Shown here: positions 3,665-29,153 of the stretch, piece by piece
How positions within the stretch are numbered: position 1 is the stretch's first letter
Layout: every line of letters starts with the position of its first letter
From: Chloroflexota bacterium
GTDB taxonomy: Bacteria > Chloroflexota > Dehalococcoidia > Dehalococcoidales > UBA2162
NCBI GenBank assembly: GCA_016190895.1
Contig: JACPPR010000096.1
Coordinates: forward strand, 1,625 to 65,624
Direction: 5' to 3'
DNA length: 64,000 nt
Program-made: the position numbers and the translations under genes
Notes under the pieces: model-generated
What the model saw: the letters and a program-made list of their open reading frames with translations, nothing else
Told to the model about the DNA's origin: nothing
Databases searched by the model: none

Positions 3665-3667
3665 CCA

Positions 3668-7298: not shown

Positions 7299-7457
7299 GA
7301 TACTCACAACGGGATACGTGAGAAGGGGATACCACCTGTCAATGTGAATGGATACCCTGCTATCAAAGCACACCTGAATCAATTTTATGATGCGCTTGAG
7401 AAAAGGCTTGACAAGGGTGATACGCCCTACAATCTGCGCAGTTGTGCTTATACGGAC

Positions 7458-7480
7458 GATTTTTCCAAGCAGAAAATTGT
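7458..7480. repeat. inverted repeat IR-C, left arm
   Basis: The 23-bp sequence gatttttccaagcagaaaattgt is the perfect reverse-complement of 8265..8287. It encodes DDFSKQKIVW in both cassettes. Confidence 0.75.
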
Positions 7481-14100: not shown

Positions 14101-14520
14101 CAATTTGGCATGATTAGGTTCACGAGTCTTCTTGATGATCAGTCTGTTGTCCAGAATGGCCTGAACAAAGAACTTGGCTTGTTCATAGAATTCTTCAGTA
14201 TCAAACTCATCCGAATTGACGGACTTGACGATCGATTCTTTGAACAGTTGTTGATGTTTGTTCCCATCGATTTTACCAACGGCTCCGTACTCAACAAGGC
14301 CGTAGCCTTGTTTATCGACACTGAGACCCACAAGAACCTTGGTAACTACGTCGGGATTGTGCTTGATAGCCTCATACAATTCTCTAATACCGGAGAAATA
14401 GAAGAAACCGACCAGGAATTTCAACTCCTTGCTGAAACCAATGAGCTTTGAGATTCTATCCTTTAGGATCTTGCTGCCCGCATTATTGATGAAGGTGTTT
14501 TGTGACCTTGAGTCCGACAT
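11140..14520 (-). CDS. PLD-family nuclease domain fused to an SNF2-family helicase
   Basis: N-terminal HKD motif NHAKLYLF...ITGSSNLT. SNF2 motifs DVVGLGKSIIAG, DEAHRFRN, LLTATPFNN and VVQRVGRINRI. ATG 14520 lies after AAGGA. The ORF stays open to TTG 14559. Confidence 0.85.
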   Translation of the reverse strand: MSDSRSQNTFINNAGSKILKDRISKLIGFSKELKFLVGFFYFSGIRELYEAIKHNPDVVTKVLVGLSVDKQGYGLVEYGAVGKIDGNKHQQLFKESIVKSVNSDEFDTEEFYEQAKFFVQAILDNRLIIKKTREPNHAKLYLFNMKDDHADLKPCCFITGSSNLTRAGLGQQNEFNVEISDYGTQEAEDYFDDLWTKAVKITEDDAFRWELVKLLREATLIAEVTPYEAFAFVLKTYLELHKPKDIKDYVFQLLEKNGYKKYAYQVNAVAQALSIIEKENGVIISDVVGLGKSIIAGMVAKCLYKRGLIICPPALKGGVDDGIRTGWDKYRQDFELNGWEIRSCGLETLRDTLKLVQNESDFEVVIIDEAHRFRNQDTEAYSILSDICRNKIVILLTATPFNNTPADIFSMLKLFTVPGKSSLILSNNLDERFRQYSQTFRRLSNIKKNHNSTDKDRRESALADYKALFESDRIDLKRVTARSKYLANDIKSVISPVTIRRNRIDLKKDPVYSKEIYELSEVKDPCEAFFALTPEQSEFYDRVISKYFGEGGDFKGTIYRPFEYEAGIVGKDPGSLDEEENRAALIQKNLYDFMRRLLVKRFESSFGAFRQSMENFKRITEMVQTFIVNSGEKYILDRELIDRIYQDDEDDIAEELEKFEQMLTSGNFPKHYKVYDLNKEFKQKKVFLADIEADIALFGRILDELDTLKLVDNDPKLAALETELSKILKQKDKATEPIRKVIVFSEYADTVKYVEARLEKKFSGQIISVKGDLNKTKATEIISNFDTTYKNQNNKYQILITTDKMSEGVNLNRAGAVINLDIPWNPTRVVQRVGRINRISKKVFDNLYVYNFFPTLQGASIVRSRQIATEKMFMIHNTLGEDSKVFEADEEPTASGLFEKIQQNPDGLELESFQTGIRRMYAEIDEATKQRIATLPSRVKVAKSNDEYSLTVFIKKGMGLFIRGMSGETKEPAELLFEEALPLIKCGKDEKALPLSDGFWEKYTRIKDLKEKSGVPSSELSVEKKAHLKVKALLADKTDNYREFRQLLLNLVEDIEDYKTLSDYTLRRIANLAADAGDEAKIAIVQKELGSLQLDLGPDYLAKIKQKIGQLDKEVIVAIENIGEQK

Positions 14521-14585
14521 TGATTGAGTCCTTCGTAGTAAGCTATGTTCCGAAATCAAGTCCCTCTGATTATCGTAATTATACT

Positions 14586-14600
14586 ACGATTGCCAATCGT
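14586..14600. promoter_or_regulatory. 15-bp perfect palindrome in the putative helicase-MTase promoter
   Basis: ACGATTG-c-CAATCGT. On the minus strand it lies between a TTGACG and a TATAAT (14-nt spacer), upstream of the 14520 start. Confidence 0.3.
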
Positions 14601-14797
14601 CAACAAACCATCATCATTGTGCTGCCGGTCAGTGGGGCGATTTTACCCTTCGTGGGTCACAAATCGTCGGCTTGTTTACCGAGCTCGATGTGGTCGTTTG
14701 CGGGTATTCAACCAGAGTGGTAAAATTGCGATTGTTGAAATGTCGTGCTTCCAGTGACTGGACCACTGTGGAGAATGGACACTTAAAAGGATAAGAC

Positions 14798-16858
14798 ATG
14801 CCGATAACCGCTACCCAAAAGGCACAAGCCGAACAGCATCAGTGGACTGCGGCAAGGGATGGCGCACCGCAGGTGAGACTTGTCGCCGGACCGGGCACTG
14901 GAAAGTCATACAGCATCGAAAAGCGGGTCGCTCATCTTCTGACGAACGGAGCGACTCCTGGCAACGTATACATCATCTCATTCACGCGAGCCACGTGCGC
15001 AGAACTTCGTGACCGCATCACGCGTTTCTGTAGCACTCTTACGTGTGCAAACGAAGCGACACAAGTGCGAGTTTCGACAATGCATTCACTTGCTCTTCGA
15101 ATCCTACGGCGAGCCAACTTGCTTGCTTCGTATCCCAGTACTCCGATTATGTTGGACGACTGGGAGCAAGCCAAGATTTACGATAGGGAATTGGCCGAAA
15201 GCCTCGGGTCCACACCTTCCCGCGCTGCTGAAATCAGACTCGCTCATGACTCGCAGTGGCAAACCCTCAATCCGCAGTATGTCAACCAGGCACAGATAAC
15301 ACCTGCCGAGGTTCAGGGGTTTAACGCGTTCCATTCTGCTCGAACCAACCTATATTGTTGTGTGCTTCCGGGCGAAGTGATCTTCAGATGTGTTCAAGCT
15401 CTCCAGCAAGGCGCTTTAGGAGCCAGCCAATTACCTCAAATCGATCACTTAGTCGTTGATGAATTCCAGGACCTTAACGCGTGCGACCAGGAATTCGTGC
15501 ATCTGCTGTGTGCAATGAACACGATTTTGTTTGTAGCAGGTGACGACGACCAGAGTATCTATTCTTTCCGTCACGCAGATCCCAACGGGATAGTTCAGTT
15601 CCAATCCGCCTATCCGGCATCGGCTACACACATATTAAATGACTGCTTCCGATGCGCTCCGAACATTCTTAGCGCAGCCAGCCGATTGATAGCCTATAAT
15701 CCAAATAGAGTTCCAAAGAATCTTACGTCGCTCTATAGTACTGCCTCGCCTCCTGTTCAAGGCACAATGCGAGTATGGTCTTTTCAGACGGCCCAAGAAG
15801 AGAGTCGAGCCATCGCCCAATCCTGCCAAGAACTACTCAAAGCTGGAATGGCGGGACAAGAAGATGAAATTCTAATTCTAATCTCCAATCGTCGGGTTCA
15901 ACTCGATATCTTGGCACAGGAATTAGGAAACCTTGGCCTTCCATACGAACCTCCTCGGGGTAGGGCACTCACAGATGAGTTTGAAGCCATTAGGGCCGTA
16001 TACTCGTTTCTTCGTATTGCCAAAGACAACTCGTCTGGCGAAGAAGACTACCCTTCACATAGGGACCTACTTGAGGTTCTCTCCGGTGTAGGAGCCTCCA
16101 CTGCGAAGGCTGTTGCGGATGCATGTATCTCCAACAATCAGAACTTCCGTCAACTGTTCTACTTGCCAACTTGCCCCGCTTGGCTTCCGGGACGGTGCCC
16201 TTCGGCGGTACAGCGTGTGATGGCTATTGTCCAGGCTGTTCGTGCGTGGAGCATGAGCGATACGCTGGCGACCCGGAGCAGCGACATCATGACTCTTCTG
16301 TCATCACAGGCGTTCACATCCGGTATCCACGCAACAAGCAGCTTGGCAACATGGAACGCCCTTCTTGGCTCACTTCCGTCTCAGATGACACTGGAGGAAT
16401 TGCTTCAGTTCCTTGCAGCAGACAGTGAATCTGATCAACAGACGATAATTAATTCGGTCAACCAGCGTATCGGAGGGACCCAGCCCCAAATCCAGGCTCC
16501 GAGCCGGATTCGGATTCTTACTATGCATGGGGCCAAAGGGCTAAGTGGAAAGGTCGTGTTTATTCCTGGAGCGGAGCAGGGCCTTATGCCTAGTTTCAAA
16601 GCCTTACAAGCCACGGGATTACTCATTGAACAACGACGCCTTTTTTATGTATCGGTCACCCGAGCGATGGCCTCCTGCATAGTCTCTCACGTGGCTCAGC
16701 ATTCGGGTGCACAAGCGATGGCTTTGACGCAGCGATCTGTCACGCGACTGACCCGCTCACAGTTCCTGAATGAGATGAATGTCTCAAGTGTCACACGCGC
16801 CTCGGGCCTGACGCAGGCAGAGGCACAAGCGATAGCGAGAGACGTCAACAATCTATGA
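14798..16858 (+). CDS. UvrD/Rep-family (SF1) DNA helicase
   Basis: Walker A LVAGPGTGKS, VVDEFQDLN, LTMHGAKGLSGKVVFIPG and RRLFYVSVTRA. Confidence 0.85.
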   Translation: MPITATQKAQAEQHQWTAARDGAPQVRLVAGPGTGKSYSIEKRVAHLLTNGATPGNVYIISFTRATCAELRDRITRFCSTLTCANEATQVRVSTMHSLALRILRRANLLASYPSTPIMLDDWEQAKIYDRELAESLGSTPSRAAEIRLAHDSQWQTLNPQYVNQAQITPAEVQGFNAFHSARTNLYCCVLPGEVIFRCVQALQQGALGASQLPQIDHLVVDEFQDLNACDQEFVHLLCAMNTILFVAGDDDQSIYSFRHADPNGIVQFQSAYPASATHILNDCFRCAPNILSAASRLIAYNPNRVPKNLTSLYSTASPPVQGTMRVWSFQTAQEESRAIAQSCQELLKAGMAGQEDEILILISNRRVQLDILAQELGNLGLPYEPPRGRALTDEFEAIRAVYSFLRIAKDNSSGEEDYPSHRDLLEVLSGVGASTAKAVADACISNNQNFRQLFYLPTCPAWLPGRCPSAVQRVMAIVQAVRAWSMSDTLATRSSDIMTLLSSQAFTSGIHATSSLATWNALLGSLPSQMTLEELLQFLAADSESDQQTIINSVNQRIGGTQPQIQAPSRIRILTMHGAKGLSGKVVFIPGAEQGLMPSFKALQATGLLIEQRRLFYVSVTRAMASCIVSHVAQHSGAQAMALTQRSVTRLTRSQFLNEMNVSSVTRASGLTQAEAQAIARDVNNL

Positions 16859-16920
16859 GTATGGCTGCACGGTTTTCTAACTTTTCATCTTCTTCAAGTG
16901 TGATAGATATCAGAAGTTGC

Positions 16921-17000
16921 TGGAGCGCAGCGATCGATCGCTTCTTTTCAAAAAGGAGTTCGGGACTGTTCCGAGTAGCCCAACTGAGGGGATTCGAACC
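16921..17000. repeat. direct repeat copy 1 with tRNA 3'-end-like core
   Basis: Core 16957..16999 is agttcgggactgttccgagtagcccaactgaggggattcgaac. It matches 19939..19982 with 2 mismatches plus 1 indel. Weaker similarity extends about 35 bp to the left. Confidence 0.7.
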
Positions 17001-17219
17001 GGCTATCAAAACACTAGCGGGAAAGTCTTCTCGAAAGTTTTACCTTTTGAACGGAATGGTGGACCTTAGCGGGTTCGGACTTTATAGACGTGGTCCCTTA
17101 GCGTAGCTGGCTGGCCATTGGAAGGTTATTGAAAAGACTCTCCGTCCCCTTTTGGTGGAACCTCTAGGGCCACGCTACCAATACGGTAGTGTATCATACA
17201 TACCACCAATACCGAATAC

Positions 17220-17247
17220 TTGACAATCACCATCACACGATTATAAT
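17220..17247 (+). promoter_or_regulatory. near-consensus sigma70-type promoter (TTGACA-N16-TATAAT)
   Basis: TTGACA at 17220..17225 and TATAAT at 17242..17247. It lies about 85 nt upstream of ATG 17333, which has a GAGGAGGG RBS. Confidence 0.55.
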
Positions 17248-17332
17248 GTAAGACAAAGAATAATTGTGTTGGAGGTAACCGGGAGGGGGCTGTTGCAAAA
17301 GGAAAAGCTGAGTCTTAACGAGGAGGGATTCC

Positions 17333-17782
17333 ATGGGCAGACATTTATCAGCAGAAATCGACAATAGCTTCGAGAGGAAACTGGTAGTCGAAAACGCTCT
17401 GGTCGCCGCTGCCAAAAGTGAGTTGGGTGAAAAACTAAGTGCGCGAGACCGAGCCAATTTGGAAGAGATAGTGAAGCTCTTCGAAGCTATCTTGCAAGGA
17501 GAACAGCAGTTACGGTCTCCGAGCTTGTCAGCTGTTTCTATTGACATGGCACAGGTTGCAAACAGGGTTGGGAGTATTTACAATACGAGATTCAAATTTT
17601 CCCAGTTTATCGCATTTGTGGCAGAGTTAAAGCAGATTGCTGAGGCAATGCTCGAAAACCGCAGAGTTATTGAAAGAAAGAGGCGCAATTTTGATGAGTT
17701 TCTCAATTTGCTCTCAGAATCAGAAGGCAAAGAAATAGAGCGGCTACAGTCTCTGCCGCTTGGGAGTTTCTCTGTGGCATGA
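17333..17782 (+). CDS. hypothetical alpha-helical protein
   Basis: 149 aa with a strong RBS. Its stop overlaps the next start (ATGA). Confidence 0.6.
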   Translation: MGRHLSAEIDNSFERKLVVENALVAAAKSELGEKLSARDRANLEEIVKLFEAILQGEQQLRSPSLSAVSIDMAQVANRVGSIYNTRFKFSQFIAFVAELKQIAEAMLENRRVIERKRRNFDEFLNLLSESEGKEIERLQSLPLGSFSVA

Positions 17783-19212
17783 GCACCCCGGCGGCGATTG
17801 CCCAGGACGCTTTGAATCTACTTGTTTCCCGCAGTAGAAGCGTTCGATTGTCGGCGGAGGCGCTCCTAGCAAAAGACTACCCTTCGGAAGTTCCTCGTAA
17901 TCTGATTCGCTGTGTGGTGTGCGCGACAAATCGGATTGACGCAGAAGTCTCCGAGATGTCATTCAGATTGAAGGCCAAACCTGAATATTCTGAGGTCACT
18001 CTCAAGGAAGCAAAGCTTCGTCATACTTTTCTCACTTATCTTCAAACGGTGATACTGTCTCTTGTTGATGGCGCCGAAACGGGTAAGGCTCCGGCTGAAT
18101 GGATCTGGCCAATCCAACGCATGGTAGAGGAGCTTTTCCCTGGGTGCCAAATTCTGGTCAGGTCGGTACACGAACTGAACTATTTCTTTGCTCCTCTTGG
18201 TGCGATGATCCAGAAGAAATTTGCGTCACTAGGTATGGACGACATTCTCAAGGATAACGGCCTTCTTGAGGAGATCTGGATGCTAGGGACATCTTCGTTC
18301 CCTCCTAGCGGAATTTTGACTCATTGTTTAATTGCCCATGAGATTGGCCATGGTATATATGAAACACGCAAACTGGGCGACCAAATTCTGAGGTCAGTTA
18401 AGATAGATGACCGTGCTGCTTCGAATATCGTTGATCTCATCGCTTCACAAATGGTGGAAGAGTCTTCGAGTCAAGAAACGGGTCCAAGGATTACGGGTAC
18501 ACGACTAGATACGCACATAGACAGAAGTTGGCTTGAATTGTCTGTAAATGCAAGACTCAAAGAAATCCTCTCCTGTTGGGCCGAAGAGTTTGCTTGCGAC
18601 GTGATAGGGTTAAGAATCCTTGGTCCCGCGTTCCTGTTATCGCAACTCTATTTCTTATTTCCGCTAGCTTCTATCGATGTGGGCGATGTTGAACACCCGA
18701 CCCCTCGGATGAGGCTGCGGTTATCAATCAACGCTCTACTTGGAACTGAAGAAGGACTTGGATACCGAATCGTTAAGTCACTGGATATTCAGAGCGTTTT
18801 ACAGAATTGGCAGAAAACTATCATGTCGTCAGAACCGAAGGCTAATGACCCGTATTTCGATGAGGCCTATAAAATGTTACGCCCAAGCCTGCGGGAGATA
18901 TTGAAGTTGTGCAAAAAGGAAACTAAGACATTAGCATACAGTCCGGACCGCTTAGACAAGGATGTGCCTAAACTTCTGACTCGTATTGGAGACGGTATTC
19001 CTCCTAATGAGCTTTGGGATGAGAAATCACAGTGTTTCCAGCCTGCTTATATGGCTTCAATCCTAAATGCAGGGTGGCTAGCTTTCGTTGCACCAGAGTT
19101 GCCCATGCCTTTTCGGAGTGTGACCAAGCAAGAGGCAGAAGGTAGGTTGCTTTCTTTGGTCGAGAAGGCAATGGAGTATTCTGAATTGGCACGGTTGAGC
19201 CAAAAGAAGTAA
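17779..19212 (+). CDS. HExxH zinc-metallopeptidase-like protein
   Basis: 477 aa. CLIAHEIGHGIYE (HExxH) and a downstream EEFACDVIGLRILGPAF helix. Translationally coupled to both neighbours. Confidence 0.65.
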   Translation: MSTPAAIAQDALNLLVSRSRSVRLSAEALLAKDYPSEVPRNLIRCVVCATNRIDAEVSEMSFRLKAKPEYSEVTLKEAKLRHTFLTYLQTVILSLVDGAETGKAPAEWIWPIQRMVEELFPGCQILVRSVHELNYFFAPLGAMIQKKFASLGMDDILKDNGLLEEIWMLGTSSFPPSGILTHCLIAHEIGHGIYETRKLGDQILRSVKIDDRAASNIVDLIASQMVEESSSQETGPRITGTRLDTHIDRSWLELSVNARLKEILSCWAEEFACDVIGLRILGPAFLLSQLYFLFPLASIDVGDVEHPTPRMRLRLSINALLGTEEGLGYRIVKSLDIQSVLQNWQKTIMSSEPKANDPYFDEAYKMLRPSLREILKLCKKETKTLAYSPDRLDKDVPKLLTRIGDGIPPNELWDEKSQCFQPAYMASILNAGWLAFVAPELPMPFRSVTKQEAEGRLLSLVEKAMEYSELARLSQKK

Positions 19213-19213
19213 T

Positions 19214-19861
19214 ATGTCAACACTTGCTGCTAGCGAGATCAGGCGAAGAATCCGGAGCACTCAAAATGACGCGCTAGTTATCACGCCTCTACTGAATGAA
19301 GCTGATCAGGTTCGTGGAGCATCTGTGGATGTTAGGTTAGGAAACTACTTTATCTCGTTCGTCCGTGGGAAGAAGGGCATTGTGGACCCCAAGAAAATGC
19401 AGGATATCTCCGACCGATACGAGACAAATGAGGAAATATACGTGCCTTATGGTAGGAATTTTATTTTGCATCCCCGCCAATTTGTCGTAGGGGGTACTCT
19501 TGAATACTTCGGCTTGCCGAAAGATCTAGCAGCTTATGTGGTTGGTCGATCATCTTGGGGTAGACTGGGACTGGTAGTTGCTACCGCGATAGGAGTTCAT
19601 CCTGGCTATCGGGGCATTATCACATTGGAACTGACCAATCTTGGTGAGGTGCCAATATTACTGTATCCGGGTTGGTCTATCGCTCAAGTGTTTTTCCAAA
19701 CTATCATAGCAGATGCGAATTGTCCCGTGGAGGGATGTGATGTGGACAATTCAAGGTACAGCCTTGCGGTCAAACCGGAGATGAGTCGTCTGGTAGAGCC
19801 GGAAGACTTAAGGCATTTGGAAGAAGCGATCAACAAGCGGGGCGGCTTAAGGCAGACGTAA
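19214..19861 (+). CDS. dCTP deaminase (Dcd/dUTPase-fold) family protein
   Basis: ASVDVRLGN, GRSSWGRLGL and VHPGYRGIITLELTNLG follow Dcd-family motifs. It starts 2 nt after the previous stop. Confidence 0.75.
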   Translation: MSTLAASEIRRRIRSTQNDALVITPLLNEADQVRGASVDVRLGNYFISFVRGKKGIVDPKKMQDISDRYETNEEIYVPYGRNFILHPRQFVVGGTLEYFGLPKDLAAYVVGRSSWGRLGLVVATAIGVHPGYRGIITLELTNLGEVPILLYPGWSIAQVFFQTIIADANCPVEGCDVDNSRYSLAVKPEMSRLVEPEDLRHLEEAINKRGGLRQT

Positions 19862-20738: not shown

Positions 20739-20984
20739 CTATTTCTTCGGGTTTTCCTGTTTGACCAGGACTACTTCGAAAGGGCAGCGGATAGCCCCGG
20801 AAGGACATATGGTCTCGCACTCCGTGCAGTAGGTGCAGGCTTCAGGTTTGACTACAGTAGCCTTGCCGTTCACAATGGCGACGGCGCCGGTAGGGCAAAA
20901 CTCAACGCAATCACTGCAGCCGGTGCAGAGTTCCGGATTAACTTCGGGTGTAGGCATTCCCAGTCGATTCTCCTGTGCTTCCAT
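20739..20984 (-). CDS. 2x[4Fe-4S] ferredoxin
   Basis: Two Cys clusters, CTGCSDCVEFCP and CTYCTECETICP. The start could instead be the internal ATG at 20957. Confidence 0.85.
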   Translation of the reverse strand: MEAQENRLGMPTPEVNPELCTGCSDCVEFCPTGAVAIVNGKATVVKPEACTYCTECETICPSGAIRCPFEVVLVKQENPKK

Positions 20985-21031
20985 TTCCAGCGACTTACAT
21001 TCCGATTCTAACGCGTCCGTGTGTCAGCCGA

Positions 21032-21047
21032 TACGACATTTGTCGTA
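21032..21047. promoter_or_regulatory. palindrome TACGACATTTGTCGTA (ACGAC-N4-GTCGT), candidate Crp/Fnr-type site
   Basis: 16-bp palindrome between the crp/fnr stop and the ferredoxin start. A minus-strand TAGAAT (-10-like, 21010..21005) starts 29.5 bp from the palindrome centre. Confidence 0.45.
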
Positions 21048-21050
21048 AAT

Positions 21051-21776
21051 CTACCTCGCCTCTTTTAGCTTCTCCGGGTCTACCACCAGGATACGCTGGC
21101 CCTCGATACGGATTGCCCCCGCCTTTTCCAACGCCCTCAAACCCCTGCCTACCACGTCCCGGACCGAGCCTATCATAGTCGCCATCTCCTCCTGAGTCAG
21201 CCGGGGAACCGGCGAAGGGCCGCCCTGGACGACGGCCGAATCCAGCAGCAGGCGGGCAAGCCGGCTGACTACGCTACGGAAAGAAAGGTCTTCAACCACG
21301 CTGCTGAGATGGCGCAAGCGGCCGGCGAATAGCTTGATGATTGCCTGCGCTGCCGGACAGCCCGCCAGCAGCGCGTTCACCGTCTTGGTCGGGACAACGT
21401 ATATAGTAGTCTGTTCAAGCGCCGAGGCGCTGGCTGGATTCGGTCCGCCATCGAAGACAGGCACCTCGTTGAAGGTGGTGCCGGCGGCGGCCGTCATCAA
21501 TACCTGTTCTCTGCCTTCCGGCGAGCTTTTGAAGATGCGCACCCGCCCGCTCTTGACCAGATACAGTCCCTGGCACGGCTCGCCCTCCAGAAATATTACC
21601 TCGCCCCTATCGAAAGAGCGTTCCAGAGTGTCTTTGGCTATTTTCTCTCTTTCTTCAGGGCTGAGGGCGCTGAAATAAGGAACCCCTTTTAAATAGTCAG
21701 CTAATGATGACACAGGCAACTTCTCCGCTAAAATCCTACCATATCCATAAGAACGGTGTATAGGTATCAACCTCAC
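21051..21776 (-). CDS. Crp/Fnr family transcriptional regulator
   Basis: cNMP-binding-like domain (GEVIFLEGEPCQGLYLVKSGRVRIF) and C-terminal HTH (QEEMATMIGSVRDVVGRGLRALE). The 5' end runs into a repeat. An alternative GTG start is at 21713. Confidence 0.8.
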   Translation of the reverse strand: MRLIPIHRSYGYGRILAEKLPVSSLADYLKGVPYFSALSPEEREKIAKDTLERSFDRGEVIFLEGEPCQGLYLVKSGRVRIFKSSPEGREQVLMTAAAGTTFNEVPVFDGGPNPASASALEQTTIYVVPTKTVNALLAGCPAAQAIIKLFAGRLRHLSSVVEDLSFRSVVSRLARLLLDSAVVQGGPSPVPRLTQEEMATMIGSVRDVVGRGLRALEKAGAIRIEGQRILVVDPEKLKEAR

Positions 21777-21836
21777 CCCCTCGGCCCCCTCTCCGCTTGC
21801 GGAGAGGGGGAAATTTGTTTTGAGAGGGCGGAGGTG
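21771..21836. repeat. ~65-bp GC-rich repeat, family 1 copy A
   Basis: cctcaccccctcggccccctctccgcttgcggagagggggaaatttgttttgagagggc resembles the reverse-complement of 36458..36533. Confidence 0.65.
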
Positions 21837-21949
21837 AAAAATCCCCCTTAATCCCCCTTTGCCATAGGGGGATACCTAAGAAAGAGAGGTTCAACGATAA
21901 AGGCATCTCTCTTTGGTAAAGGGAGATTGAGAGGGATTTATTCAGGGAG
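21837..21949. repeat. ~110-bp MITE-like repeat with terminal inverted repeats, copy 1
   Basis: Begins aaaatccccct and ends gagagggattt. Colinear with 62267..62369. Confidence 0.65.
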
Positions 21950-21982
21950 TTAGGAACAACCTGGTAAAACGCAAAATTTGCT

Positions 21983-21998
21983 TGCGACAAAAGTCGTA
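21983..21998. promoter_or_regulatory. palindrome TGCGACAAAAGTCGTA (GCGAC-N4-GTCGT), candidate Crp/Fnr-type site
   Basis: 12 of 16 positions are identical to 21032..21047. TGCTATATT (extended -10-like, hexamer 22020..22025) starts 29.5 bp from the centre. It lies upstream of ATG 22071. Confidence 0.45.
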
Positions 21999-22070
21999 TC
22001 AGGCACGTTGGGCCGATGCTATATTGAGAGTGTTAGATCAAACCAGAATCTGAGAAAGGAGGGCAGAAAT

Positions 22071-22853
22071 ATGACTATGGATAAAACATGTCCCGGGTCC
22101 CGGACAATCCGCGAGCCGAGGCCGGAGTATATGAACTGCCCGAATTGCGGTAAAGAAGTAGAAATCTGGACTGATGAACTGAAAGCAACATGTCGTAACT
22201 GCGGGACTAAGGTCTTCAGGGCGCAGCAGGCTTCCTGTATCGAATGGTGCCCTCACGCCAAGGAATGTGTCGGTCCCGAGGTTTACGAGCGGCTGATGGC
22301 CGGCGCCGGCGAGGACCTCTCCGATGGCGATAATCCCCTGGAAGTGCTCCGCCGTGAGCACGATAGAGCTTCTGAAAAAATCAGCTTGTTGCGGGCTGCC
22401 AGCCTTTGTCTCAAGCTGGGCGCCACTTCTCCCGGTTCGCCTATCTGGGGTAAAGGGGTCGACCATCTGGCCAAAGTGACAGATTTTATCGATAAAGATA
22501 TCACGCTCCACTTCCATCGTGAGGAGGAAGTCCTTTTCCCGATGGTCGAAAAGCATCTGGGTCTAGTGAAAAGCCCGACCCGGTTATTGCTGGGCGAGCA
22601 TAAAGAAATCTGGGAGATTTACGCTGAGCTAAAGGAAATGCTTGCCGAGCTGCAGCAGGGAACGCACCGGGATGAGGAACTGATGGCAGCGCACGTGCAG
22701 GATGTCAGCGGCCGTATCGAGCAGCTTTTGAAGGACCACATCAAGAAAGAGAATGAGTCTCTGCTGCCTCTGGCCAAAGGTCTTCTCAATGAGGCAGAGC
22801 TTAAGGAATTCTCCGACAGGTGGAAATCAACCAGCCTTGAAGTCAAGGCTTAA
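22071..22853 (+). CDS. zinc-ribbon / hemerythrin-like (HHE) domain protein
   Basis: N-terminal CPNCG...CRNCG. Hemerythrin-type HFHREEEVLFP and DHIKKENESLLP. RBS AAGGAGG. Confidence 0.75.
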   Translation: MTMDKTCPGSRTIREPRPEYMNCPNCGKEVEIWTDELKATCRNCGTKVFRAQQASCIEWCPHAKECVGPEVYERLMAGAGEDLSDGDNPLEVLRREHDRASEKISLLRAASLCLKLGATSPGSPIWGKGVDHLAKVTDFIDKDITLHFHREEEVLFPMVEKHLGLVKSPTRLLLGEHKEIWEIYAELKEMLAELQQGTHRDEELMAAHVQDVSGRIEQLLKDHIKKENESLLPLAKGLLNEAELKEFSDRWKSTSLEVKA

Positions 22854-22876
22854 TGATTCTGTAAGGGGTTGAATCG

Positions 22877-23149
22877 GTGAGCGTAAAAATAGACGTTTAT
22901 CCCGGTTTTGCTCATCTCACCGGCGGTCAAACCGAGGTTGAAGTAAACGGCAGTACTGTGGGCCAGTGTCTTGAGCAGCTGGTTGCCCGGTACCCGAAGA
23001 TAAAGAAGACATTGTACAGGAAAGACGGCACATTAAGCTGCTGTGTCGAGATTTGGGTCAATTTGAAAACATCGTACCCCGAGGAACTGGATATGCCGGT
23101 CAAGGATGGAGATGAGCTTCGTATGCTGGGTCTGATGATTACCGGCTGA
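22877..23149 (+). CDS. MoaD/ThiS-family small beta-grasp protein
   Basis: 90 aa with ...VKDGDELRMLGLMITG. Family-like, but it ends in TG rather than GG. Confidence 0.55.
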   Translation: MSVKIDVYPGFAHLTGGQTEVEVNGSTVGQCLEQLVARYPKIKKTLYRKDGTLSCCVEIWVNLKTSYPEELDMPVKDGDELRMLGLMITG

Positions 23150-23212
23150 GAAATGGGTAAGCCAGGGCTTATCACGAAACATAGAGGCAAAAATAAATAG
23201 GGAGGGTTGACA

Positions 23213-23431
23213 ATGAAAGAAAGAGTAGAGGCAGCGCTGGAGAAAATAAGACCGGCGTTACAGGCAGACGGCGGTGATGTCGAGCTGGTGGATGTCAAGG
23301 ATGGCGTAGCCACAGTGAAACTTACGGGACACTGTGCGGGCTGACCGATGTCCACGATGACGCTCAGGATGGGCGTCGAGCGGGTAGTCAGGGCAGAAGT
23401 GCCTGAAATCAAAGAACTGGTAGCTGTATAA
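23213..23431 (+). CDS. NifU C-terminal domain (Nfu)-like protein with in-frame TGA (candidate selenocysteine, CxxU)
   Basis: RBS GGGAGGG. MKERVEAALEKIRPALQADGGDVELVDVKDGVATVKLTGHCAG-TGA-PMSTMTLRMGVERVVRAEVPEIKELVAV. The TGA (23342..23344) falls where Nfu proteins have the second Cys of CxxC. A hairpin lies at 23358..23378. Confidence 0.65.
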
Positions 23432-23492
23432 CACGAGCCGTCGCCGGTAATGCCGGTTGGCGCAATCAGGTAAGAACACGGGACGGGAACCA

Positions 23493-24149
23493 ATGAGCGA
23501 CACTTTCCGTAACTTTCTGGAAGAAGTTAAGCCGATAAAATTCAAAGAACCGCTGGCGGAGACGCTGGGGGCATTTGCTAGCGAAGGCGCCGTTTTAGAC
23601 TACACCTTCATCGATGCGGTCAAGATGGCTGGGCATGCCTGTCCGACCGTCGCCGGAGCCTATTTGTCCTGCCAGAAGGCGATGGAGGCGCTCTACCCCG
23701 GTGAGACTCCGGTGAGGGGGGAGATAGCGGTAACCGTATACGGTGAGCCTGATGAAGGGGTCTACGGGGTGATGGGGCAGGTATTCAGTTTTCTCACCGG
23801 GGCGGCGCCAGCCAGCGGTTTCAGAGGGCTCGGCCATAAATTCAAGCGGAAGGACTTACTCAGATTTGTCCCGAAGAAACCCGACCCTCAAGCGATGTGC
23901 TTCGAGTTTCGGAGGCTGGATAACGGCAGGACGGCTCTGGTCAGATTCAGCCCTCAGCGCATTCCGTTCCCTGCCGAAAAAGGGGCGCGAATGGGGGAAC
24001 TCCTGGAGAAAGTCCTCTGGGAGGCGGAAAGGGATAATGAGAAACAGGAATTCCAGGAACTCTGGACGGATAAAGTGAAAAGTATGCTTTTGGAAGCAAT
24101 AGATATCGATAAGTGGCTCAAGGTGGAAGTAAAGGAGGAACTAGAATGA
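23493..24149 (+). CDS. FmdE-like domain protein
   Basis: The AGHACPTVAGAYL motif resembles the FmdE family. The start is uncertain because the ORF is open from 23457. Confidence 0.5.
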   Translation: MSDTFRNFLEEVKPIKFKEPLAETLGAFASEGAVLDYTFIDAVKMAGHACPTVAGAYLSCQKAMEALYPGETPVRGEIAVTVYGEPDEGVYGVMGQVFSFLTGAAPASGFRGLGHKFKRKDLLRFVPKKPDPQAMCFEFRRLDNGRTALVRFSPQRIPFPAEKGARMGELLEKVLWEAERDNEKQEFQELWTDKVKSMLLEAIDIDKWLKVEVKEELE

Positions 24150-25372
24150 ACGCAGTAAAAACAATCGATGTTAAAGGGTTGCCCCACGCTCAGAGGGAAG
24201 AGATGATTTTCCCCGGTATCGAGGCGCTTAAGCCCGGTGAGACGGCCCGCCTTGTCGTTGAATTCAATCCGGTGCCGCTAGTCTTCTTGTTAAAGGCGGA
24301 AAAAGAGCTTGAGGTTGCCTATGAAAAAGAGGGGCCGGATGAATGGATTCTGCGGGTAACCAAGCAAGCTAAGAAAAAGGAAGAAGATAAGAAAGCGCAG
24401 TTCAGGGAATTGCTGGCCGAACTAGGAGAACCTCAGCTTTCCGACGCAGCCAAAGAGAAAGCCCGCACGCTGCTTCAGGAAGTCGATGCCAAAACCCTGG
24501 GTATCCTGGAGCAGGAACTAATCAGGGAAGGGGTTCCCCACGAGACAATCAGAAAGAGCCTGTGCGATATCCACCTCGAGGTGATGCGTGACAGCCTGGT
24601 CGCCCAGAGAAAAGAGGTTTCGGCGCCGCACCCTGTGCACACCTTCATGCAGGAGCACGAACACATCGTCGCCTCACTTAAAGACCTGGATGCCCTGGTG
24701 AAGCGGCTTCAGAGCAAGAATAGCTATGGAGCTATGGGGGAAGACCTGGAGAAACTCAAGGACATCGCCCACCACTTGGTCGAGGCGGAAAGCCATCACC
24801 GGAGAGAAGAAGAGGTGCTCTTCCCTGAAATGGAGAAGCACGATATCACCGAACCTCCGGAGATTATGAGGCTGGACCATATCGAGTTCAGAAAGAGAAA
24901 ACAGGCGCTCTATCAGATAGCCCATAACTCTACTGATTACGCCTTCCCTGAGTTCAAGGCGAGGGTGACCGAATATGGTCTATACTTGACCAAAGAGCTG
25001 GAGAGCCATATTTTCAAGGAAGATAACATCCTTTACCAGATTGCCCTCCAGGTGCTGACTCCCGAGGACTGGGCGAAGGTGAAGGAAGAATGCGATAAGG
25101 TCGGCTACTGCTGTTTTACCCCTGAAGACTATAAAATGGAGGAAGCAAAGATGGTTGAGCTCGATTTAAGACAAATTATGCCCTTCGAAAGGCACGAACT
25201 GATATTCCAGAAATGGGATGCCCTGAAACCTGGTGATACCCTGAAAATCATCAACGACCATGACCCCAAGCCCTTGCGCTATCAGTTTGAGGTAGAATAT
25301 AAAGGGCAGTACGAGTGGCAGTATGACCAGCAGGGACCGAAAGACTGGATCGTCAGCATTAAGAGAGTTTAA
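24146..25372 (+). CDS. DUF2249 / DUF438 / hemerythrin-domain protein
   Basis: RBS AAGGAGG with ATGA overlap of the previous gene. Central HHRREEEVLFPEMEKH...HIFKEDNILY. Similar DUF2249-like ends (PGETARLVVEFNP / PGDTLKIINDHDP). Confidence 0.7.
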   Translation: MNAVKTIDVKGLPHAQREEMIFPGIEALKPGETARLVVEFNPVPLVFLLKAEKELEVAYEKEGPDEWILRVTKQAKKKEEDKKAQFRELLAELGEPQLSDAAKEKARTLLQEVDAKTLGILEQELIREGVPHETIRKSLCDIHLEVMRDSLVAQRKEVSAPHPVHTFMQEHEHIVASLKDLDALVKRLQSKNSYGAMGEDLEKLKDIAHHLVEAESHHRREEEVLFPEMEKHDITEPPEIMRLDHIEFRKRKQALYQIAHNSTDYAFPEFKARVTEYGLYLTKELESHIFKEDNILYQIALQVLTPEDWAKVKEECDKVGYCCFTPEDYKMEEAKMVELDLRQIMPFERHELIFQKWDALKPGDTLKIINDHDPKPLRYQFEVEYKGQYEWQYDQQGPKDWIVSIKRV

Positions 25373-25384
25373 GACGGAGGCATC

Positions 25385-26434
25385 ATGATAGGCACGAAGA
25401 AACCAACTCAGCTATTAAAAGACGAGCATCAGGCGGTACTCCAGAAACTGACCGCCCTGGAGAAGGTTTTCGGTCGGCTGGATGAGAAAGAGGCAATCTC
25501 GGCGGAATTGAAGGAACTGACATCCTTTTTCAAGACTGAATTCTGGGTGCACTTTACCAAGGAAGAGGAGGCGCTCTTCCCTGAAATCGAGACCTTCCTC
25601 TTCCTGCCCAGGGATGCCGGGCCGCTCGGTGTCATGCTCATGGAACACGAGGACCTGCGGAAAACCAACGACGTGATTCAGAAAGCGACGGCCGAGTACC
25701 TGGCTGGTTCCTCCGGCGAAGCAACCAAAAAGACGCTCCGGGAACAGGGGTCTCACTTTATCAACGTCCTGAGAGACCACATCAACAAGGAAGACAACAT
25801 CCTGTTTATGATGGCGGACATGCACCTAAGCCAGCAGCAGATTGATAAGGTCGCCAAGCTTTTTCTGGATATAGAAGGCGGGCACAAGGCGGAAGGAGCG
25901 AAAGAAAACCCGGTAATCGAGGCGCTCCGCGCCAGGCGCAGCTGTAAAGATTTTCTTGGTACTCCGGTACCCACTGAGATACTGACGGAATTAGTCGACG
26001 TCGCCCGCTATTCGCCTTCGGGCGCCAATAAAAATACCTGGCGTTTTATCATCGTCACAGAGCGCCAGGACCTCAACCGCTTAAGTGAAATCGCCCGCAC
26101 CTGTTCCTGGTTAGCCTCAGCACAAGCAGCCATCGCCGTGATAGTGGACCCCGCCTCGACACGCTACTGGTTGGAGGACTGCTCGGTAGCTGCCTATGCG
26201 ATATGGTTGGCGGGTGAGGCGCGCGGACTGGGTGTTGCTTGGGCAGCCATGCATCAGAGTGATAACTCTGAGGAAAGCGCTCGCCGGCAGAAGTGCGTTA
26301 GAGACGTGCTGGGCCTGCCCGAGGCGCTCTACACTCCTATGGTGCTGGGACTGGGTTACCGCAAATCCCAGCCTCCGGACAAAAAGCGGCCAAATCTGGA
26401 AGATATAATTGCCTGGGGAAAGTACCCTGGCTGA
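25385..26434 (+). CDS. hemerythrin domain - nitroreductase domain fusion protein
   Basis: N-terminal LLKDEHQAVL...HFTKEEEALFP...HINKEDNILF. C-terminal RRSCKDF...ARYSPSGANKNTWRFIIV. Confidence 0.8.
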   Translation: MIGTKKPTQLLKDEHQAVLQKLTALEKVFGRLDEKEAISAELKELTSFFKTEFWVHFTKEEEALFPEIETFLFLPRDAGPLGVMLMEHEDLRKTNDVIQKATAEYLAGSSGEATKKTLREQGSHFINVLRDHINKEDNILFMMADMHLSQQQIDKVAKLFLDIEGGHKAEGAKENPVIEALRARRSCKDFLGTPVPTEILTELVDVARYSPSGANKNTWRFIIVTERQDLNRLSEIARTCSWLASAQAAIAVIVDPASTRYWLEDCSVAAYAIWLAGEARGLGVAWAAMHQSDNSEESARRQKCVRDVLGLPEALYTPMVLGLGYRKSQPPDKKRPNLEDIIAWGKYPG

Positions 26435-26475
26435 GGTAACAAATTAAGCTGTAGAGGAATCAAGGGAGGAGCTCT

Positions 26476-26970
26476 ATGATAGATACGAAAAAACCTACCC
26501 AGCTATTAAAAGAAGAACACCAGGCGGTGCTGCAAAAGCTGACAGCTATGGAGAGGATTTTCGGCCGGCTGGATAGGAAGGATGAAGTTTCGGCTGAATT
26601 GAAAGAGTTGGCGGCTTTTTTCGAGACTGAGTTCTGGACGCATTTCGATAAAGAGGAAAAGGCACTCTTTCCTGAATTCGATAATTTTATGCCGCGAGGC
26701 GCCGGCCCAATCGCCGTGATGCTGCAAGAGCACATAGTGCTGAGGGACACCAATGATGTAATGCAGGAGGCCATCGCCCGGTATCTTAACGGTGATAACG
26801 ATGCCGAAACTAAACGAACGATTAGCCAGAACGGAAGCCATTTCATCGATTTCTTAAGGCAACACATCAACAAAGAAGATGGCATTCTTTTCAGGATGAC
26901 GGACATGCATCTCAACCAGGCGCAAAATGAGAAAGTCGCCCGGCTGTTCCGGGAGATGGATAAGCGTTAG
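26476..26970 (+). CDS. hemerythrin domain protein (paralogue of the N-terminal half of 25385..26434)
   Basis: MIDTKKPTQLLKEEHQAVLQKL...HFDKEEKALFP...HINKEDGILF. Confidence 0.8.
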   Translation: MIDTKKPTQLLKEEHQAVLQKLTAMERIFGRLDRKDEVSAELKELAAFFETEFWTHFDKEEKALFPEFDNFMPRGAGPIAVMLQEHIVLRDTNDVMQEAIARYLNGDNDAETKRTISQNGSHFIDFLRQHINKEDGILFRMTDMHLNQAQNEKVARLFREMDKR

Positions 26971-26988
26971 GGAAAGGGAGTTAGCAGA

Positions 26989-27387
26989 ATGGTGAATGGA
27001 ATGGATACCGAACGGATACTGGAAGAGGAGATAACTGCCTCTCTCATCGAGGGCAGATTGCCCTGCCCGATAGCTTTCAAAGTGGCCAGAAAATTGGATA
27101 TCACCCCGAAATCGGTCGGCGAGAAAACCGATGAGTTAGGGATAAGGATAATTGATTGCCAGTTGGGTTGCTTCGGCGTAAAAAAAGCCACCCACGACGA
27201 CTTGAAAGGCGCGCCGCTGGATGCCAACATGGCTGGGGCCATTCAATCTACTCAGGTCAATGGGCAGATGCCCTGTGAAGCAGCCTGGGAAATAGCCCGG
27301 CAATTCAAGGTAAGCCGTAAAAAAATCGGCGATACGGCTACCCAGCTAAAGATAATGCTGGTCGATTGCCAGCTTGGCTGCTTCTGA
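26989..27387 (+). CDS. hypothetical protein with an internal tandem duplication ending in DCQLGCF
   Basis: Two ~60-aa repeats, each ...PC..A..IAR....(S/T).K..G....L.I...DCQLGCF. Confidence 0.6.
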   Translation: MVNGMDTERILEEEITASLIEGRLPCPIAFKVARKLDITPKSVGEKTDELGIRIIDCQLGCFGVKKATHDDLKGAPLDANMAGAIQSTQVNGQMPCEAAWEIARQFKVSRKKIGDTATQLKIMLVDCQLGCF

Positions 27388-27439
27388 TTAATCTGCCGAA
27401 GAATTGACAAAAAGAGGCTAAAACCTGTAGCCTTTATTC

Positions 27440-27862
27440 ATGACAAATGACTTCTCAGAAACAGAACTGGTAACAATCAGCCTGCACAGTGGGAGCTATG
27501 ACAGGGTAACGAATGCCCTGTCACTATCGATTATCTGCTTGGCGATGGGTATGGATGTAACTATTCTGCTTACTTACGAGGCGCTCAGGCGGTTTGTCAA
27601 AGGGCACCTGGAGGATATGGAAGGGACGGATGATGAGTTCCAGAATTTGTTTCATGACGGCATCGAAAGAGGCTCCATAACCTCTATCGAGGGCAAGCTG
27701 ACTGAAGCTAAGAACCTGGGACTGAAGTTGTATGCCTGTCCTAGCGCTATGGCCACTATGAACATCGTCCGGCAGGACCTGGTTGATGAAGTAGATGACC
27801 TGATGGGACTGGCGACCTTCATCGGTCTGGCCCGGACAGCCAAGATAAACTGGTACATCTGA
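27440..27862 (+). CDS. DsrE/DsrF-like family protein
   Basis: 140 aa. LKLYACPSAMATM is typical of DsrE-like sulfur-relay / peroxiredoxin-like folds. Confidence 0.6.
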   Translation: MTNDFSETELVTISLHSGSYDRVTNALSLSIICLAMGMDVTILLTYEALRRFVKGHLEDMEGTDDEFQNLFHDGIERGSITSIEGKLTEAKNLGLKLYACPSAMATMNIVRQDLVDEVDDLMGLATFIGLARTAKINWYI

Positions 27863-27880
27863 CCCGCGAGGCGAAACCGC

Positions 27881-28261
27881 GTGCTGAGGGTAAAGAGGGT
27901 CTACGAAGGTAAGCAGGCTGATGACGGAACAAGGCTGCTTGTCGATAGGCTATGGCCCCGGGGACTGAGCAAGGGAGAAGCCGGTATCGATGAGTGGCTG
28001 AAGGATTTAGCTCCTAGCGATGAGTTACGTCGCTGGTTTGCTCATGAGCCGGAAAAATGGCCGGAGTTCAGGAAGAGGTATCTGGAAGAACTGTCGGTTC
28101 CAGAGAAAACCGAAGCCCTGAAGCGGATTGCCCGTATGGTAGCAGAGGGAGGAGTTACCCTGCTCTATGCGGCCAAAGATACCGAGCGTAATAATGCCAG
28201 GGTGCTGGCGGATGTCGTCACCGGATTTAGGGAGAATTCGCAACGAAAAGGTGGACGGTAG
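27881..28261 (+). CDS. DUF488 (YeaO-like) protein
   Basis: KRVYE...DGTRLLVDRLWPRGLSK...LLYAAKDTERNNARVLADV is colinear with E. coli YeaO as I recall it. Confidence 0.8.
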   Translation: MLRVKRVYEGKQADDGTRLLVDRLWPRGLSKGEAGIDEWLKDLAPSDELRRWFAHEPEKWPEFRKRYLEELSVPEKTEALKRIARMVAEGGVTLLYAAKDTERNNARVLADVVTGFRENSQRKGGR

Positions 28262-28267
28262 CCGAGA

Positions 28268-28642
28268 ATGGCTGTGCTCTACGATAAACTAACCGCTAAA
28301 AAAGAGAAAGACATCAGAATCCTGGCCGATTTCATTTCGATTTTCTGCCGGGAAAAACATCCTGACGCTGAAAAAAGTCCCTTCGCCATGAGAGACGCCA
28401 GGCTTGAGCGCAGCTTCGATGGGAAAGAAGTGATACTCTGCCAGGATTGTCAGAAACTGCTGAATCACGGCATAGCCAAACGGCTCCAATGCACCTTAGA
28501 CCCCAAGCCGATGTGCAAGAGATGCCGGATTCACTGTTACGCTCCTGGCTACCGGGATAGGATTCGAGAGGTGATGAGATTCTCCGGGTTATATCTGGTG
28601 ACGCACGGCCGGTTTGATTTCTTGTTTCATTATTTCTTTTAA
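28268..28642 (+). CDS. nitrous-oxide-stimulated promoter (YgbA-like) family protein
   Basis: Cys pattern CQDC...CKRCRIHCYAPGYRDRIREVMRFSG resembles YgbA. Confidence 0.7.
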   Translation: MAVLYDKLTAKKEKDIRILADFISIFCREKHPDAEKSPFAMRDARLERSFDGKEVILCQDCQKLLNHGIAKRLQCTLDPKPMCKRCRIHCYAPGYRDRIREVMRFSGLYLVTHGRFDFLFHYFF

Positions 28643-28688
28643 GGCTGGTAAGAGATTGGCAGCGACTAAAGAAGAACTCATTCAAGCG

Positions 28689-29153
28689 ATGGAGAACTAC
28701 TTCGGGGAGGATGCGAGGAGAATAAACCACGCCCGCCGGGTGACGGCCTATGCCGAGCAGCTTATGACAACGGAAGGGGGAGACTATCCTGTAGTCATCG
28801 GGGCGGCCGTGCTCCATGATATTGGCATTCACCAGGCAGAAAAGAAGTACGGCAGTCCCAGCGGCAGGTATCAGGAGATAGAAGGACCACCCATCGCCCG
28901 CGAAATCTTGACCAGGTTAAGGTTCGGGCAAAACCAGATTGACGAGATTTGCGAGATTATTGCCCACCACCACAGCCCGGGCAAGATAAAGACAAAGAAC
29001 TTCGGCATCCTCTATGATGCCGATTGGCTGGTCAACCTGAAAGATGAGTACGATATTCAGGACAGGGAGAAACTGGGCAATATCATCGACCGCGTGTTTC
29101 TGACGGAGAGCGGGCGTTCGCTAGCCCGCCGGACGTATCTTACGCAGAGCTAG
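28689..29153 (+). CDS. HD-domain phosphohydrolase
   Basis: AAVLHDIG...IIAHHHSPG...LYDADWL. The start is uncertain: the ORF is open from 28614 and TTG 28656 is also possible. Confidence 0.7.
   Translation: MENYFGEDARRINHARRVTAYAEQLMTTEGGDYPVVIGAAVLHDIGIHQAEKKYGSPSGRYQEIEGPPIAREILTRLRFGQNQIDEICEIIAHHHSPGKIKTKNFGILYDADWLVNLKDEYDIQDREKLGNIIDRVFLTESGRSLARRTYLTQS

Follow-up and report, generated by a model that had tools for sequence, protein, structure and literature searches.

A candidate selenocysteine-containing form of the Nfu-type iron–sulphur cluster carrier in Dehalococcoidales

Introduction

Nfu-type carriers of iron–sulphur (Fe-S) clusters, among them Nfu, NFU1, CnfU and NfuA, act as pairs of monomers that bridge a labile cluster through their CxxC motifs. 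The described examples (the C-terminal domain of human NFU1, 2M5O; Arabidopsis CnfU, 2Z51; Staphylococcus Nfu, 1XHJ; and the C-terminal domains of Escherichia coli NfuA and of NifU) share the domain PF01106, and many bacterial Nfu proteins consist of this single domain. The subject of this study is an nfu/nifU-like gene at positions 23213-23431 (+ strand) of a 64,000-nucleotide stretch of Chloroflexota DNA (Dehalococcoidia, Dehalococcoidales, UBA2162; assembly GCA_016190895.1, contig JACPPR010000096.1, positions 1,625 to 65,624), hereafter called the window. Its product, likewise single-domain at 72 residues, corresponds to the described carriers from end to end, in predicted fold and in the position of the motif before helix 2. 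It differs from them in that the second ligand cysteine is replaced by a UGA codon, proposed here to specify selenocysteine (Sec), which is followed inside the coding sequence by a candidate Sec insertion sequence (SECIS) hairpin. Taken as a whole, the evidence makes it very probable that 23213-23431 is a functional selenoprotein gene, in which the hairpin directs Sec insertion at UGA codon 44 to give a 72-residue Nfu protein with a putative stress-linked role in Fe-S metabolism.

The exchange of a conserved cysteine for Sec in an Fe-S biogenesis protein has a precedent in the HesB-like selenoproteins, which are A-type carriers of the IscA family (TIGR01911), and the cysteine replaced in such carriers is a cluster ligand. 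These proteins are the closest functional precedent in the catalogue of selenoproteins; however, they belong to an unrelated fold and family, they carry Sec in a UxGP rather than a CxxU motif, and they have been verified experimentally, whereas the NifU form is known from sequence. The SelW-like, AhpD-like, GrdA, HdrA, DUF1858 and CopZ-family 2Fe-2S-binding selenoproteins also hold Sec in a CxxU-type or a metal- or cluster-binding motif and have cysteine homologues, but they are different families and none of them is an Nfu domain. The bacterial SECIS consensus, of which E. coli fdhF provides the prototype, is likewise a hairpin directly 3' of the UGA and inside the open reading frame (ORF), with a loop that begins G[G/U]. 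The sequence of the window hairpin, a candidate SelB site, is unrelated to those of the E. coli elements.

A recent inventory of prokaryotic selenoproteins includes HesB-like carriers, several CxxU proteins and cluster-binding selenoproteins, and there is no entry for NifU, Nfu or PF01106 among its 119 families and subfamilies (Table 1, PMC13188914, May 2026). This agrees with the initial annotation of the DNA, made by a model from the sequence alone, which had named no Nfu-type protein among the established selenoprotein families. NCBIfam release 20 contains no NifU selenoprotein model, and a full-text literature search found no description of a Sec-containing NifU, an earlier listing in BSepDB or in the supplements of older metagenome surveys being possible. 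The combination of canonical Sec insertion with a canonical Nfu domain appears to be new, and the gene apparently represents a genuine, uncatalogued selenoprotein family that has been found as a Sec/Cys pair.

Results

An Nfu-type reading frame interrupted by a single TGA codon

The nfu frame comprises 72 codons (71 standard amino acids and the proposed Sec44). It starts with the ATG at 23213, with a Shine–Dalgarno-like GGGAGGG (23200-23206) 6 nt upstream, and ends with the TAA at 23429-23431. The translation reads MKERVEAALEKIRPALQADGGDVELVDVKDGVATVKLTGHCAG as far as the TGA of codon 44 and PMSTMTLRMGVERVVRAEVPEIKELVAV from there to the TAA. The TGA, at 23342-23344, is the sole interruption of the frame and lies at the second-cysteine position of the CxxC motif (C41-A-G-U44). 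All of these coordinates had been given in the initial annotation and hold in the sequence.

With the TGA read as cysteine, the product matches the Pfam family NifU (PF01106) with 101.2 bits against a cutoff of 27, over positions 1-66 of the 67 in the model, and its relatives of solved structure are 2z51, 1xhj and 2m5o (E-values 1e-25 to 1e-12). In the alignment with these structures the TGA falls on the second cysteine of CxxC. The proposal that the frame is a full-length Nfu-type domain with TGA at exactly this position is borne out by both the Pfam score and the structural alignment. A literal CxxC is absent from the window protein; for the motif to be complete, the UGA has to specify Sec, the selenium analogue of cysteine.

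The fold was assessed on the AlphaFold model of a 92%-identical cysteine homologue (P0001), which stood in for the window protein. This model (predicted local distance difference test score, pLDDT, 82.5) contains helix 2-18, strands 21-29 and 32-39, helix 48-62 and strand 68-71, which is the Nfu alpha-beta fold, and its best Foldseek matches were 2z51 and 2m5o (template modelling scores, TM, of 0.89 and 0.80 respectively). The CxxC motif of the model is located in a low-confidence loop, residues 40-47, between strand 2 and helix 2.

The identity of codon 44 was examined in metagenome assemblies. The possibility, raised at the outset, that the reads carry TGC or TGT here found no support: independent Logan contigs from four groundwater runs all have TGA at 23342-23344, with no variant and at depths of 5.8 to 68. 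Elsewhere in the window TGA terminates 15 of the 54 main ORFs, including the gene directly 5' of nfu (23147-23149), which indicates that TGA is an ordinary stop codon in this genome and not a reassigned one.

TGA recurs at the same codon in related NifU genes

The best 120 database homologues of the window protein (78-92% identity; 72-85 amino acids, most of them 72; Chloroflexota where named) all have cysteine at the codon-44 position. The sequence C-x-x-C-P-M is present in 119 of them, and one more has PI for PM. Since all of these proteins are cysteine forms, TGA forms were sought directly in DNA with the pattern G-x-C-x-x-TGA-P-M-x-T-M-T-L, for which our own estimate from information content gives a chance expectation of about 0.3 matches per collection. 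The scan returned eight loci in species-representative genomes and 20 metagenome loci. Seven of the eight are true NifU genes, four of them from named Dehalococcoidales and the others from Chloroflexota, Chloroflexia and Clostridia; the remaining one, L004 (Accumulibacter), is not a NifU gene and was discarded as a chance match to the pattern. A scan of viral contigs gave a single distant cysteine NifU, which was used as an extra control only.

Besides the window gene, 26 NifU genes therefore have TGA at the same codon, bringing the TGA forms to 27, mostly from Dehalococcoidales and other Chloroflexota. The tails of the 26 are family-like and reach the normal C-terminus wherever the contig allows, and 24 of them have no other stop on either side of the TGA. 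The two others, L009 and L016, are near-identical nifU copies with an extra in-frame TAG, and from their sequences they are probably decayed copies or errors in metagenome-assembled genomes (MAGs) rather than Sec sites. Codon-level diversity was computed on the 14 distinct sequences with HCAG before the UGA (HCAG-U sequences). In the region 3' of the hairpin the non-synonymous diversity (pN) is 0.22 and the synonymous diversity (pS) is 0.65, similar to the values 5' of the TGA; this is the mark of purifying selection, and a pN so far below pS indicates that the tail is translated.

The initial annotation had suggested an alignment with cysteine homologues and a hunt for further TGA orthologues, and these have placed the TGA on an invariant cysteine and yielded the 26 additional genes. 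Its statement that the sequence stays family-like as far as the TAA is upheld by a PF01106 match that spans the whole domain and by the selection acting on the tail. The pseudogene decay that it had also envisaged is not the pattern seen in the orthologues, given the clean frames of the 24 genes and the purifying selection downstream. Public gene calls, by contrast with this full-length frame, end at the TGA and leave 'NfuA' fragments of 43-45 residues.

A hairpin under selection follows the TGA

The hairpin at 23358-23378 has the sequence UGACGCUCA-GGA-UGGGCGUCG and begins 13 nt after the TGA. Its 9-bp stem is formed by a 5' arm at 23358-23366 and a 3' arm at 23370-23378, separated by the apical loop GGA at 23367-23369 (or AGGAU, closed by an A-U pair). 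The stem-loop GACGC-N9-GCGTC of the initial annotation is thus real as a structure but had been drawn too small, and the suggestion that it lies within the range of bacterial SECIS elements agrees with published values. The bacterial SECIS model of Zhang and Gladyshev, as summarised in PMC13188914, specifies an upper stem of 4-16 bp, an apical loop of 3-9 nt with G in its first two positions (typically N1-G-[G/U]-N-N2 with N1 and N2 paired), a distance of 16-37 nt from UGA to loop, and a minimum free energy of at most -7.5 kcal/mol. The window hairpin conforms in all four respects, with 9 bp, a GGA (or A-GG-A-U) loop, a spacing of 22 (or 21) nt and a free energy, folded alone, of -11.1 kcal/mol. 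A possible lower extension of the stem (23351-23384, + strand; 23351-23353 with 23382-23384, and 23355 with 23380) is predicted when the window and several Sec forms are folded to minimum free energy, but it is weakly supported, as not all Sec forms conserve it.

The same hairpin is common to 16 of the 22 distinct Sec-form sequences. Across all 22, 91% of the helix cells are paired, compared with 30-55% when the partners are slid by one to three columns. Only at Thr+6 and Gly+10 (23362/23374; pair 21-33) are two synonymous third positions paired with each other, and this pair covaries (GC 9, CG 6, AU 4, UG 1). Among the 14 HCAG-U sequences, pS drops to 0.37 over codons +1 to +12, as against 0.65-0.76 in the flanks. 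The six-fold degenerate Leu+7 is CTC in 14/14 of the HCAG-U sequences and Arg+8 is AGG in 14/14, the AGG being the codon that provides the GG of the loop. The cysteine forms vary at both positions, with TTG, CTC, CTG or TTA for Leu+7 and AAG, AGG, CGC, CGG or CAG at +8. Compensatory change and suppressed synonymous variation in the hairpin are therefore features of the Sec forms, and neither is found in the cysteine forms that lack the HC motif. Those cysteine forms with Ala or Ser in place of His before the first cysteine reach only 5-6 of the nine helix pairs, which by this comparison is the baseline set by the amino-acid sequence. Judged from the aligned genes, UGA-44 is established as a selected and translated codon that is accompanied by a selected hairpin of predicted SelB type.

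Probable fossil hairpins and a mosaic gene

Three cysteine forms with the motif HC-x-G-C have kept the hairpin, namely L030 (gene at 3001-3219; 9/9 pairs, TGT), L039 (228-485; 9/9, TGC) and L037 (87-305; 8/9, TGT). These hairpins appear to be fossil SECIS elements, left in place by what the sequences suggest were recent conversions of Sec to cysteine.

The window gene itself combines features of both groups. Its HCAG context 5' of the TGA is typical of the Sec forms, whereas the neighbouring cysteine forms have HCGG. Over the central 60 nt (codons -5 to +15, 23327-23386) it is identical at 55/60 positions to L001, a member of the Sec clade linked to hypF, and at 47/60 to L035, the closest gene overall and a cysteine form. 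In the flanks the relation is reversed, with 40/60, 29/45 and 22/42 identities to L001 and 50/60, 40/45 and 39/42 to L035. By these counts the window nifU is a mosaic, with a centre like that of the Sec clade and flanks like those of the cysteine clade. Two origins fit this pattern in a comparison confined to only 72 codons: the SECIS tract may have been kept from a Sec ancestor and have decayed in the relatives that went over to cysteine, or it may have been gained by recombination from another Sec-type nifU.

Probable selenocysteine decoding and a second TGA-containing gene

The lineage to which the window belongs is known for Sec decoding. Dehalococcoidia include Sec decoders with 46-49 selenoprotein genes, among the largest bacterial selenoproteomes (PMC13326102), and selC, the genes for Sec synthesis and SelB are present in Dehalogenimonas (PMC4918011).

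The initial annotation had also pointed to a second TGA-interrupted ORF in the window, at 54563. This ORF is real. It occupies 54281-56035 (+ strand; 584 codons; listed together with L040, 5713-7467), with its TGA at 54563-54565, around which it reads LGVCW-U-HGAVNRQLPYLADLEKSG. At its N-terminus the product is weakly UGSC-like (NF041046, 25 bits; PF24696, 24.5 bits; both below cutoff), and the 480-residue C-terminal part has no match to a Pfam family. All of its best 120 homologues, from Chloroflexota and Dehalococcoidales with several paralogues per MAG, have been called only from 3' of the TGA. In Chloroflexi RBG_16_51_9 the orthologue has retained the TGA, an identical flanking peptide, a conserved hairpin 3' of the TGA (CAGGC-AGUU-GCCUU) and the synteny, the conserved gene order being SBP_bac_5, the TGA gene, two CoA-transferase III genes and a URO-D-like gene. 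On this sequence evidence 54281-56035 appears to represent another selenoprotein family that has been mis-annotated systematically, and the presence of a second conserved TGA gene supports Sec decoding in the organism.

A screen of coding potential for TGA read-through recovered the nfu codon at 23342 and missed the one at 54563. Two further candidates from this screen were rejected as artefacts, that at 2212 arising from adjacent genes and that at 37422 from the antisense strand of radC. The hypF gene of L002 is interrupted after CPDCL and was considered as another selenoprotein gene; it was rejected as the interruption is TAA or TAG, not TGA, and points to a MAG error or a decaying copy. Two window genes from families with known Sec forms elsewhere, an O6-methylguanine-DNA methyltransferase gene (36535-37041, + strand) and the DsrE-like gene described below, are uninterrupted ORFs.

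Weighing the alternatives

A number of observations weigh against the assignment of the window gene as a selenoprotein gene. In a distance tree it is the only Sec member of its own clade; cysteine is present in every syntenic orthologue and in the nearest relatives, which are up to 92% identical. Pfam annotation of the 64 kb revealed no selA, selB or selD among the roughly 55 window ORFs, and ARAGORN found no tRNA-Sec gene (selC) in the window, nor in any of 19 related loci; with no sel gene within 64 kb, the Sec machinery of the organism is inferred. No RNA runs holding the nfu locus were found. In isolation the fold of the hairpin is only modestly unusual (z = -2.08, with 7/200 shuffles folding equally well), so that the argument for it depends on the comparison between genes. 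In the remaining six of the 22 distinct Sec sequences the candidate hairpins are weaker or of a different kind, or a strict scan finds none. Three cysteine forms carry the same or nearly the same hairpin, which is consequently no proof of Sec when taken alone. Finally, Rfam gave no SECIS or other family, either for the whole window at gathering thresholds or for 23300-23440 in a permissive search; bacterial SECIS elements are effectively not modelled in Rfam.

These points bear most directly on the possibility that a cysteine form with a fossil hairpin, such as L030 or L039, has recently suffered a nonsense mutation from TGY to TGA, leaving a pseudogene or a 43-residue fragment, either because the organism is unable to decode Sec or because translation simply ends at the codon. 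Such a change requires a single base, the closest relatives of the nested window gene do have TGC or TGT at this codon, and the lack of Sec machinery in the window would be in keeping with it. However, TGA is the consensus in four metagenome assemblies, the 28 codons beyond it are intact and family-like, and the hairpin is perfect (9/9) where non-Sec relatives have decayed to 5-6/9. The HCAG context is that of the Sec forms and not the HCGG of the neighbouring cysteine forms, and a second conserved TGA gene is present in the same window. A recent nonsense mutation is accordingly considered unlikely. That the TGA is simply a sequencing or assembly error for TGC or TGT can for practical purposes be discounted, since, although single-base errors do occur in metagenome assemblies, the Logan assemblies of the four runs contradict it and 26 other assemblies of related genes have TGA at this very codon.

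Two other explanations accept the codon or the protein and dispense with a SECIS function. In one, the UGA would be read through without Sec, by a near-cognate tRNA (Trp, Cys or Arg) or by local recoding, with the hairpin as a mere stimulator of read-through. In bacteria a UGA with C as the next base is a leaky context for termination, and the Sec machinery of this organism is putative. Yet the hairpin fits the specific SelB-type model, with the apical GG at the right spacing, the codon replaces a cysteine in the manner that is the hallmark of a Sec/Cys pair, TGA otherwise acts as a normal stop in the window and the lineage is known to decode Sec; non-Sec read-through is thus regarded as very unlikely. 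In the other, the hairpin would be a by-product of the conserved amino acids TMTLRMGVE and have no function of its own. The fact that 7/9 pairs involve positions constrained by the protein is consistent with this, as is the pairing in the cysteine forms, which attain 5-6/9 from the amino acids alone and in three cases 8-9/9. What the protein sequence leaves unexplained is the covariation of the Thr+6 and Gly+10 third positions in the Sec forms, the fixed CTC and AGG codons and the halved pS, none of which is seen in cysteine forms without the HC motif, and this explanation is held to be slightly less likely again than non-Sec read-through.

A model for Sec insertion and cluster binding

In the mechanism proposed for the selenoprotein gene, a ribosome at UGA codon 44 would meet the hairpin 23358-23378, which would recruit SelB-GTP-Sec-tRNA(Sec), the apical A-GG-A-U loop starting 21-22 nt past the UGA. 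Sec would be inserted and translation would run on to the TAA. The product would be an Nfu-type protein of one domain and 72 residues, with the motif C41-x-x-U44. By homology with Nfu, this motif should lie in the flexible loop that joins strand 2 to helix 2, where two monomers could bridge a labile [4Fe-4S] or [2Fe-2S] cluster through two cysteine thiolates and two Sec selenolates. Sec would then be the more reactive site and one harder to damage irreversibly by oxidation; its use may be explained by a lower pKa, by more rapid exchange of ligands or by resistance to irreversible over-oxidation.

A broader hypothesis can be put forward, tentatively and with somewhat less than even confidence. 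Nfu would be an uncatalogued selenoprotein family in which Sec is a direct ligand of a transient cluster and in which Sec and cysteine have been exchanged repeatedly, with fossil SECIS elements as the trace of these exchanges. Recombination may carry the 'HCAG-UGA-SECIS' tract from one nifU copy to another, and the Sec forms would serve either in hydrogenase maturation, alongside hypF or hycI, or in the hemerythrin stress cluster associated with Crp/Fnr. In both settings the selenolate might make the delivery of clusters faster or more tolerant of damage in strict anaerobes.

If confirmed, the Sec form would add a family and a central function in Fe-S biogenesis to the prokaryotic selenoproteome, in which the HesB-like proteins are so far the only Fe-S assembly proteins listed. 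Much of the interest of the gene stems from the presumed role of Sec as an Fe-S ligand and from the existence of near-identical cysteine orthologues for comparison. Some of the syntenic orthologues are approximately 90% identical, and this natural CxxU/CxxC pair would permit a direct test of the effect of a selenolate on cluster assembly, on transfer and on stability towards oxidation or nitric oxide. The fossil hairpins in the cysteine forms provide a clean example of recent Sec-to-Cys exchange. The analysis also corrects a systematic annotation error, by which Sec nifU genes are deposited as proteins of 43-45 amino acids and members of the unrelated UGSC-like family (54281-56035) as N-terminally clipped ones.

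Gene neighbourhood of the Sec and cysteine forms

The neighbourhood of nfu was described over 20739-29153 from Pfam and NCBIfam matches. On the minus strand are genes for a ferredoxin (20739-20984) and a Crp/Fnr regulator (21051-21776). These are followed on the plus strand by a hemerythrin-domain gene (about 22071-22853) and a MoaD/ThiS-like gene (MoaD/ThiS/SAMP-like; 22877-23149), the latter directly 5' of nfu. On the 3' side of nfu, and also on the plus strand, are an FmdE-like gene (23493-24149), a DUF2249/DUF438/hemerythrin gene (24113-25372), a hemerythrin-nitroreductase gene (25385-26434), a hemerythrin gene (26476-26970), the DsrE-like gene (27440-27862), a DUF488 gene, YgbA_NO (28268-28642) and an HD gene (28614-29153), the DUF488 gene lying between the DsrE-like gene and YgbA_NO. 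A scan of the plus strand from 22528 to 24300, which covers the MoaD-like, nfu and FmdE-like genes, gave no terminator-like sites, and nothing convincing was found in the way of a Crp/Fnr-type palindrome 5' of the operon.

The loci of the cysteine orthologues L030, L031, L033, L034 and L035 share with the window the gene order ferredoxin, Crp/Fnr, hemerythrin, nifU, FmdE-like, DUF2249-hemerythrin and nitroreductase. The grouping of hemerythrin, DUF2249/DUF438, nitroreductase, DsrE and YgbA_NO genes in a cluster linked to Crp/Fnr suggests that Fe-S centres are repaired there when oxidative or nitrosative stress occurs, and from this neighbourhood the most likely job of the window nfu is the delivery or repair of Fe-S clusters under such stress. 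Other Sec forms have a different setting. The hypF gene is directly 3' of nifU in a Sec-form clade of Dehalococcoidales type (L001, L002, L007, L013 and L018), and in the clade of L006, L011 and L024 the order is PPDK, nifU, hycI. Adjacency to hypF or hycI points to the maturation of [NiFe]-hydrogenase.

Two other genes of the cluster deserve mention. The MoaD-like protein ends in ...MITG and not in the usual Gly-Gly; its gene had no tblastn match in the syntenic cysteine loci and appears to be specific to the version of the cluster in the window genome. A 132-residue ORF at 26989-27387 (+ strand), within the hemerythrin cluster, contains two repeats, each with P-C...(I/V)DCQLGCF. It has no Pfam match, and a conserved counterpart with 66% identity is present in the syntenic locus L030.

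Other features of the window

A defence and mobile island extends over 528-19861. It comprises Prok-E2_D (1525-2214), a JAB domain (2218-2901), a ThiF/E1-like gene (2813-3664), a beta-clamp-like gene (4146-5450), a serine resolvase (6334-7053, minus strand), a type IIG Eco57I/MmeI-like restriction-modification gene (7883-11143, minus strand), an HKD+SNF2 DrmD-like helicase (11140-14559, minus strand), a UvrD/GajB-like helicase (14798-16858) and a dCTP-deaminase-like gene (19214-19861). Further along, 42691-45583 on the minus strand encodes an NgoMIV-type restriction endonuclease and an N4/N6 DNA methyltransferase, adjoining a PIN-domain gene.

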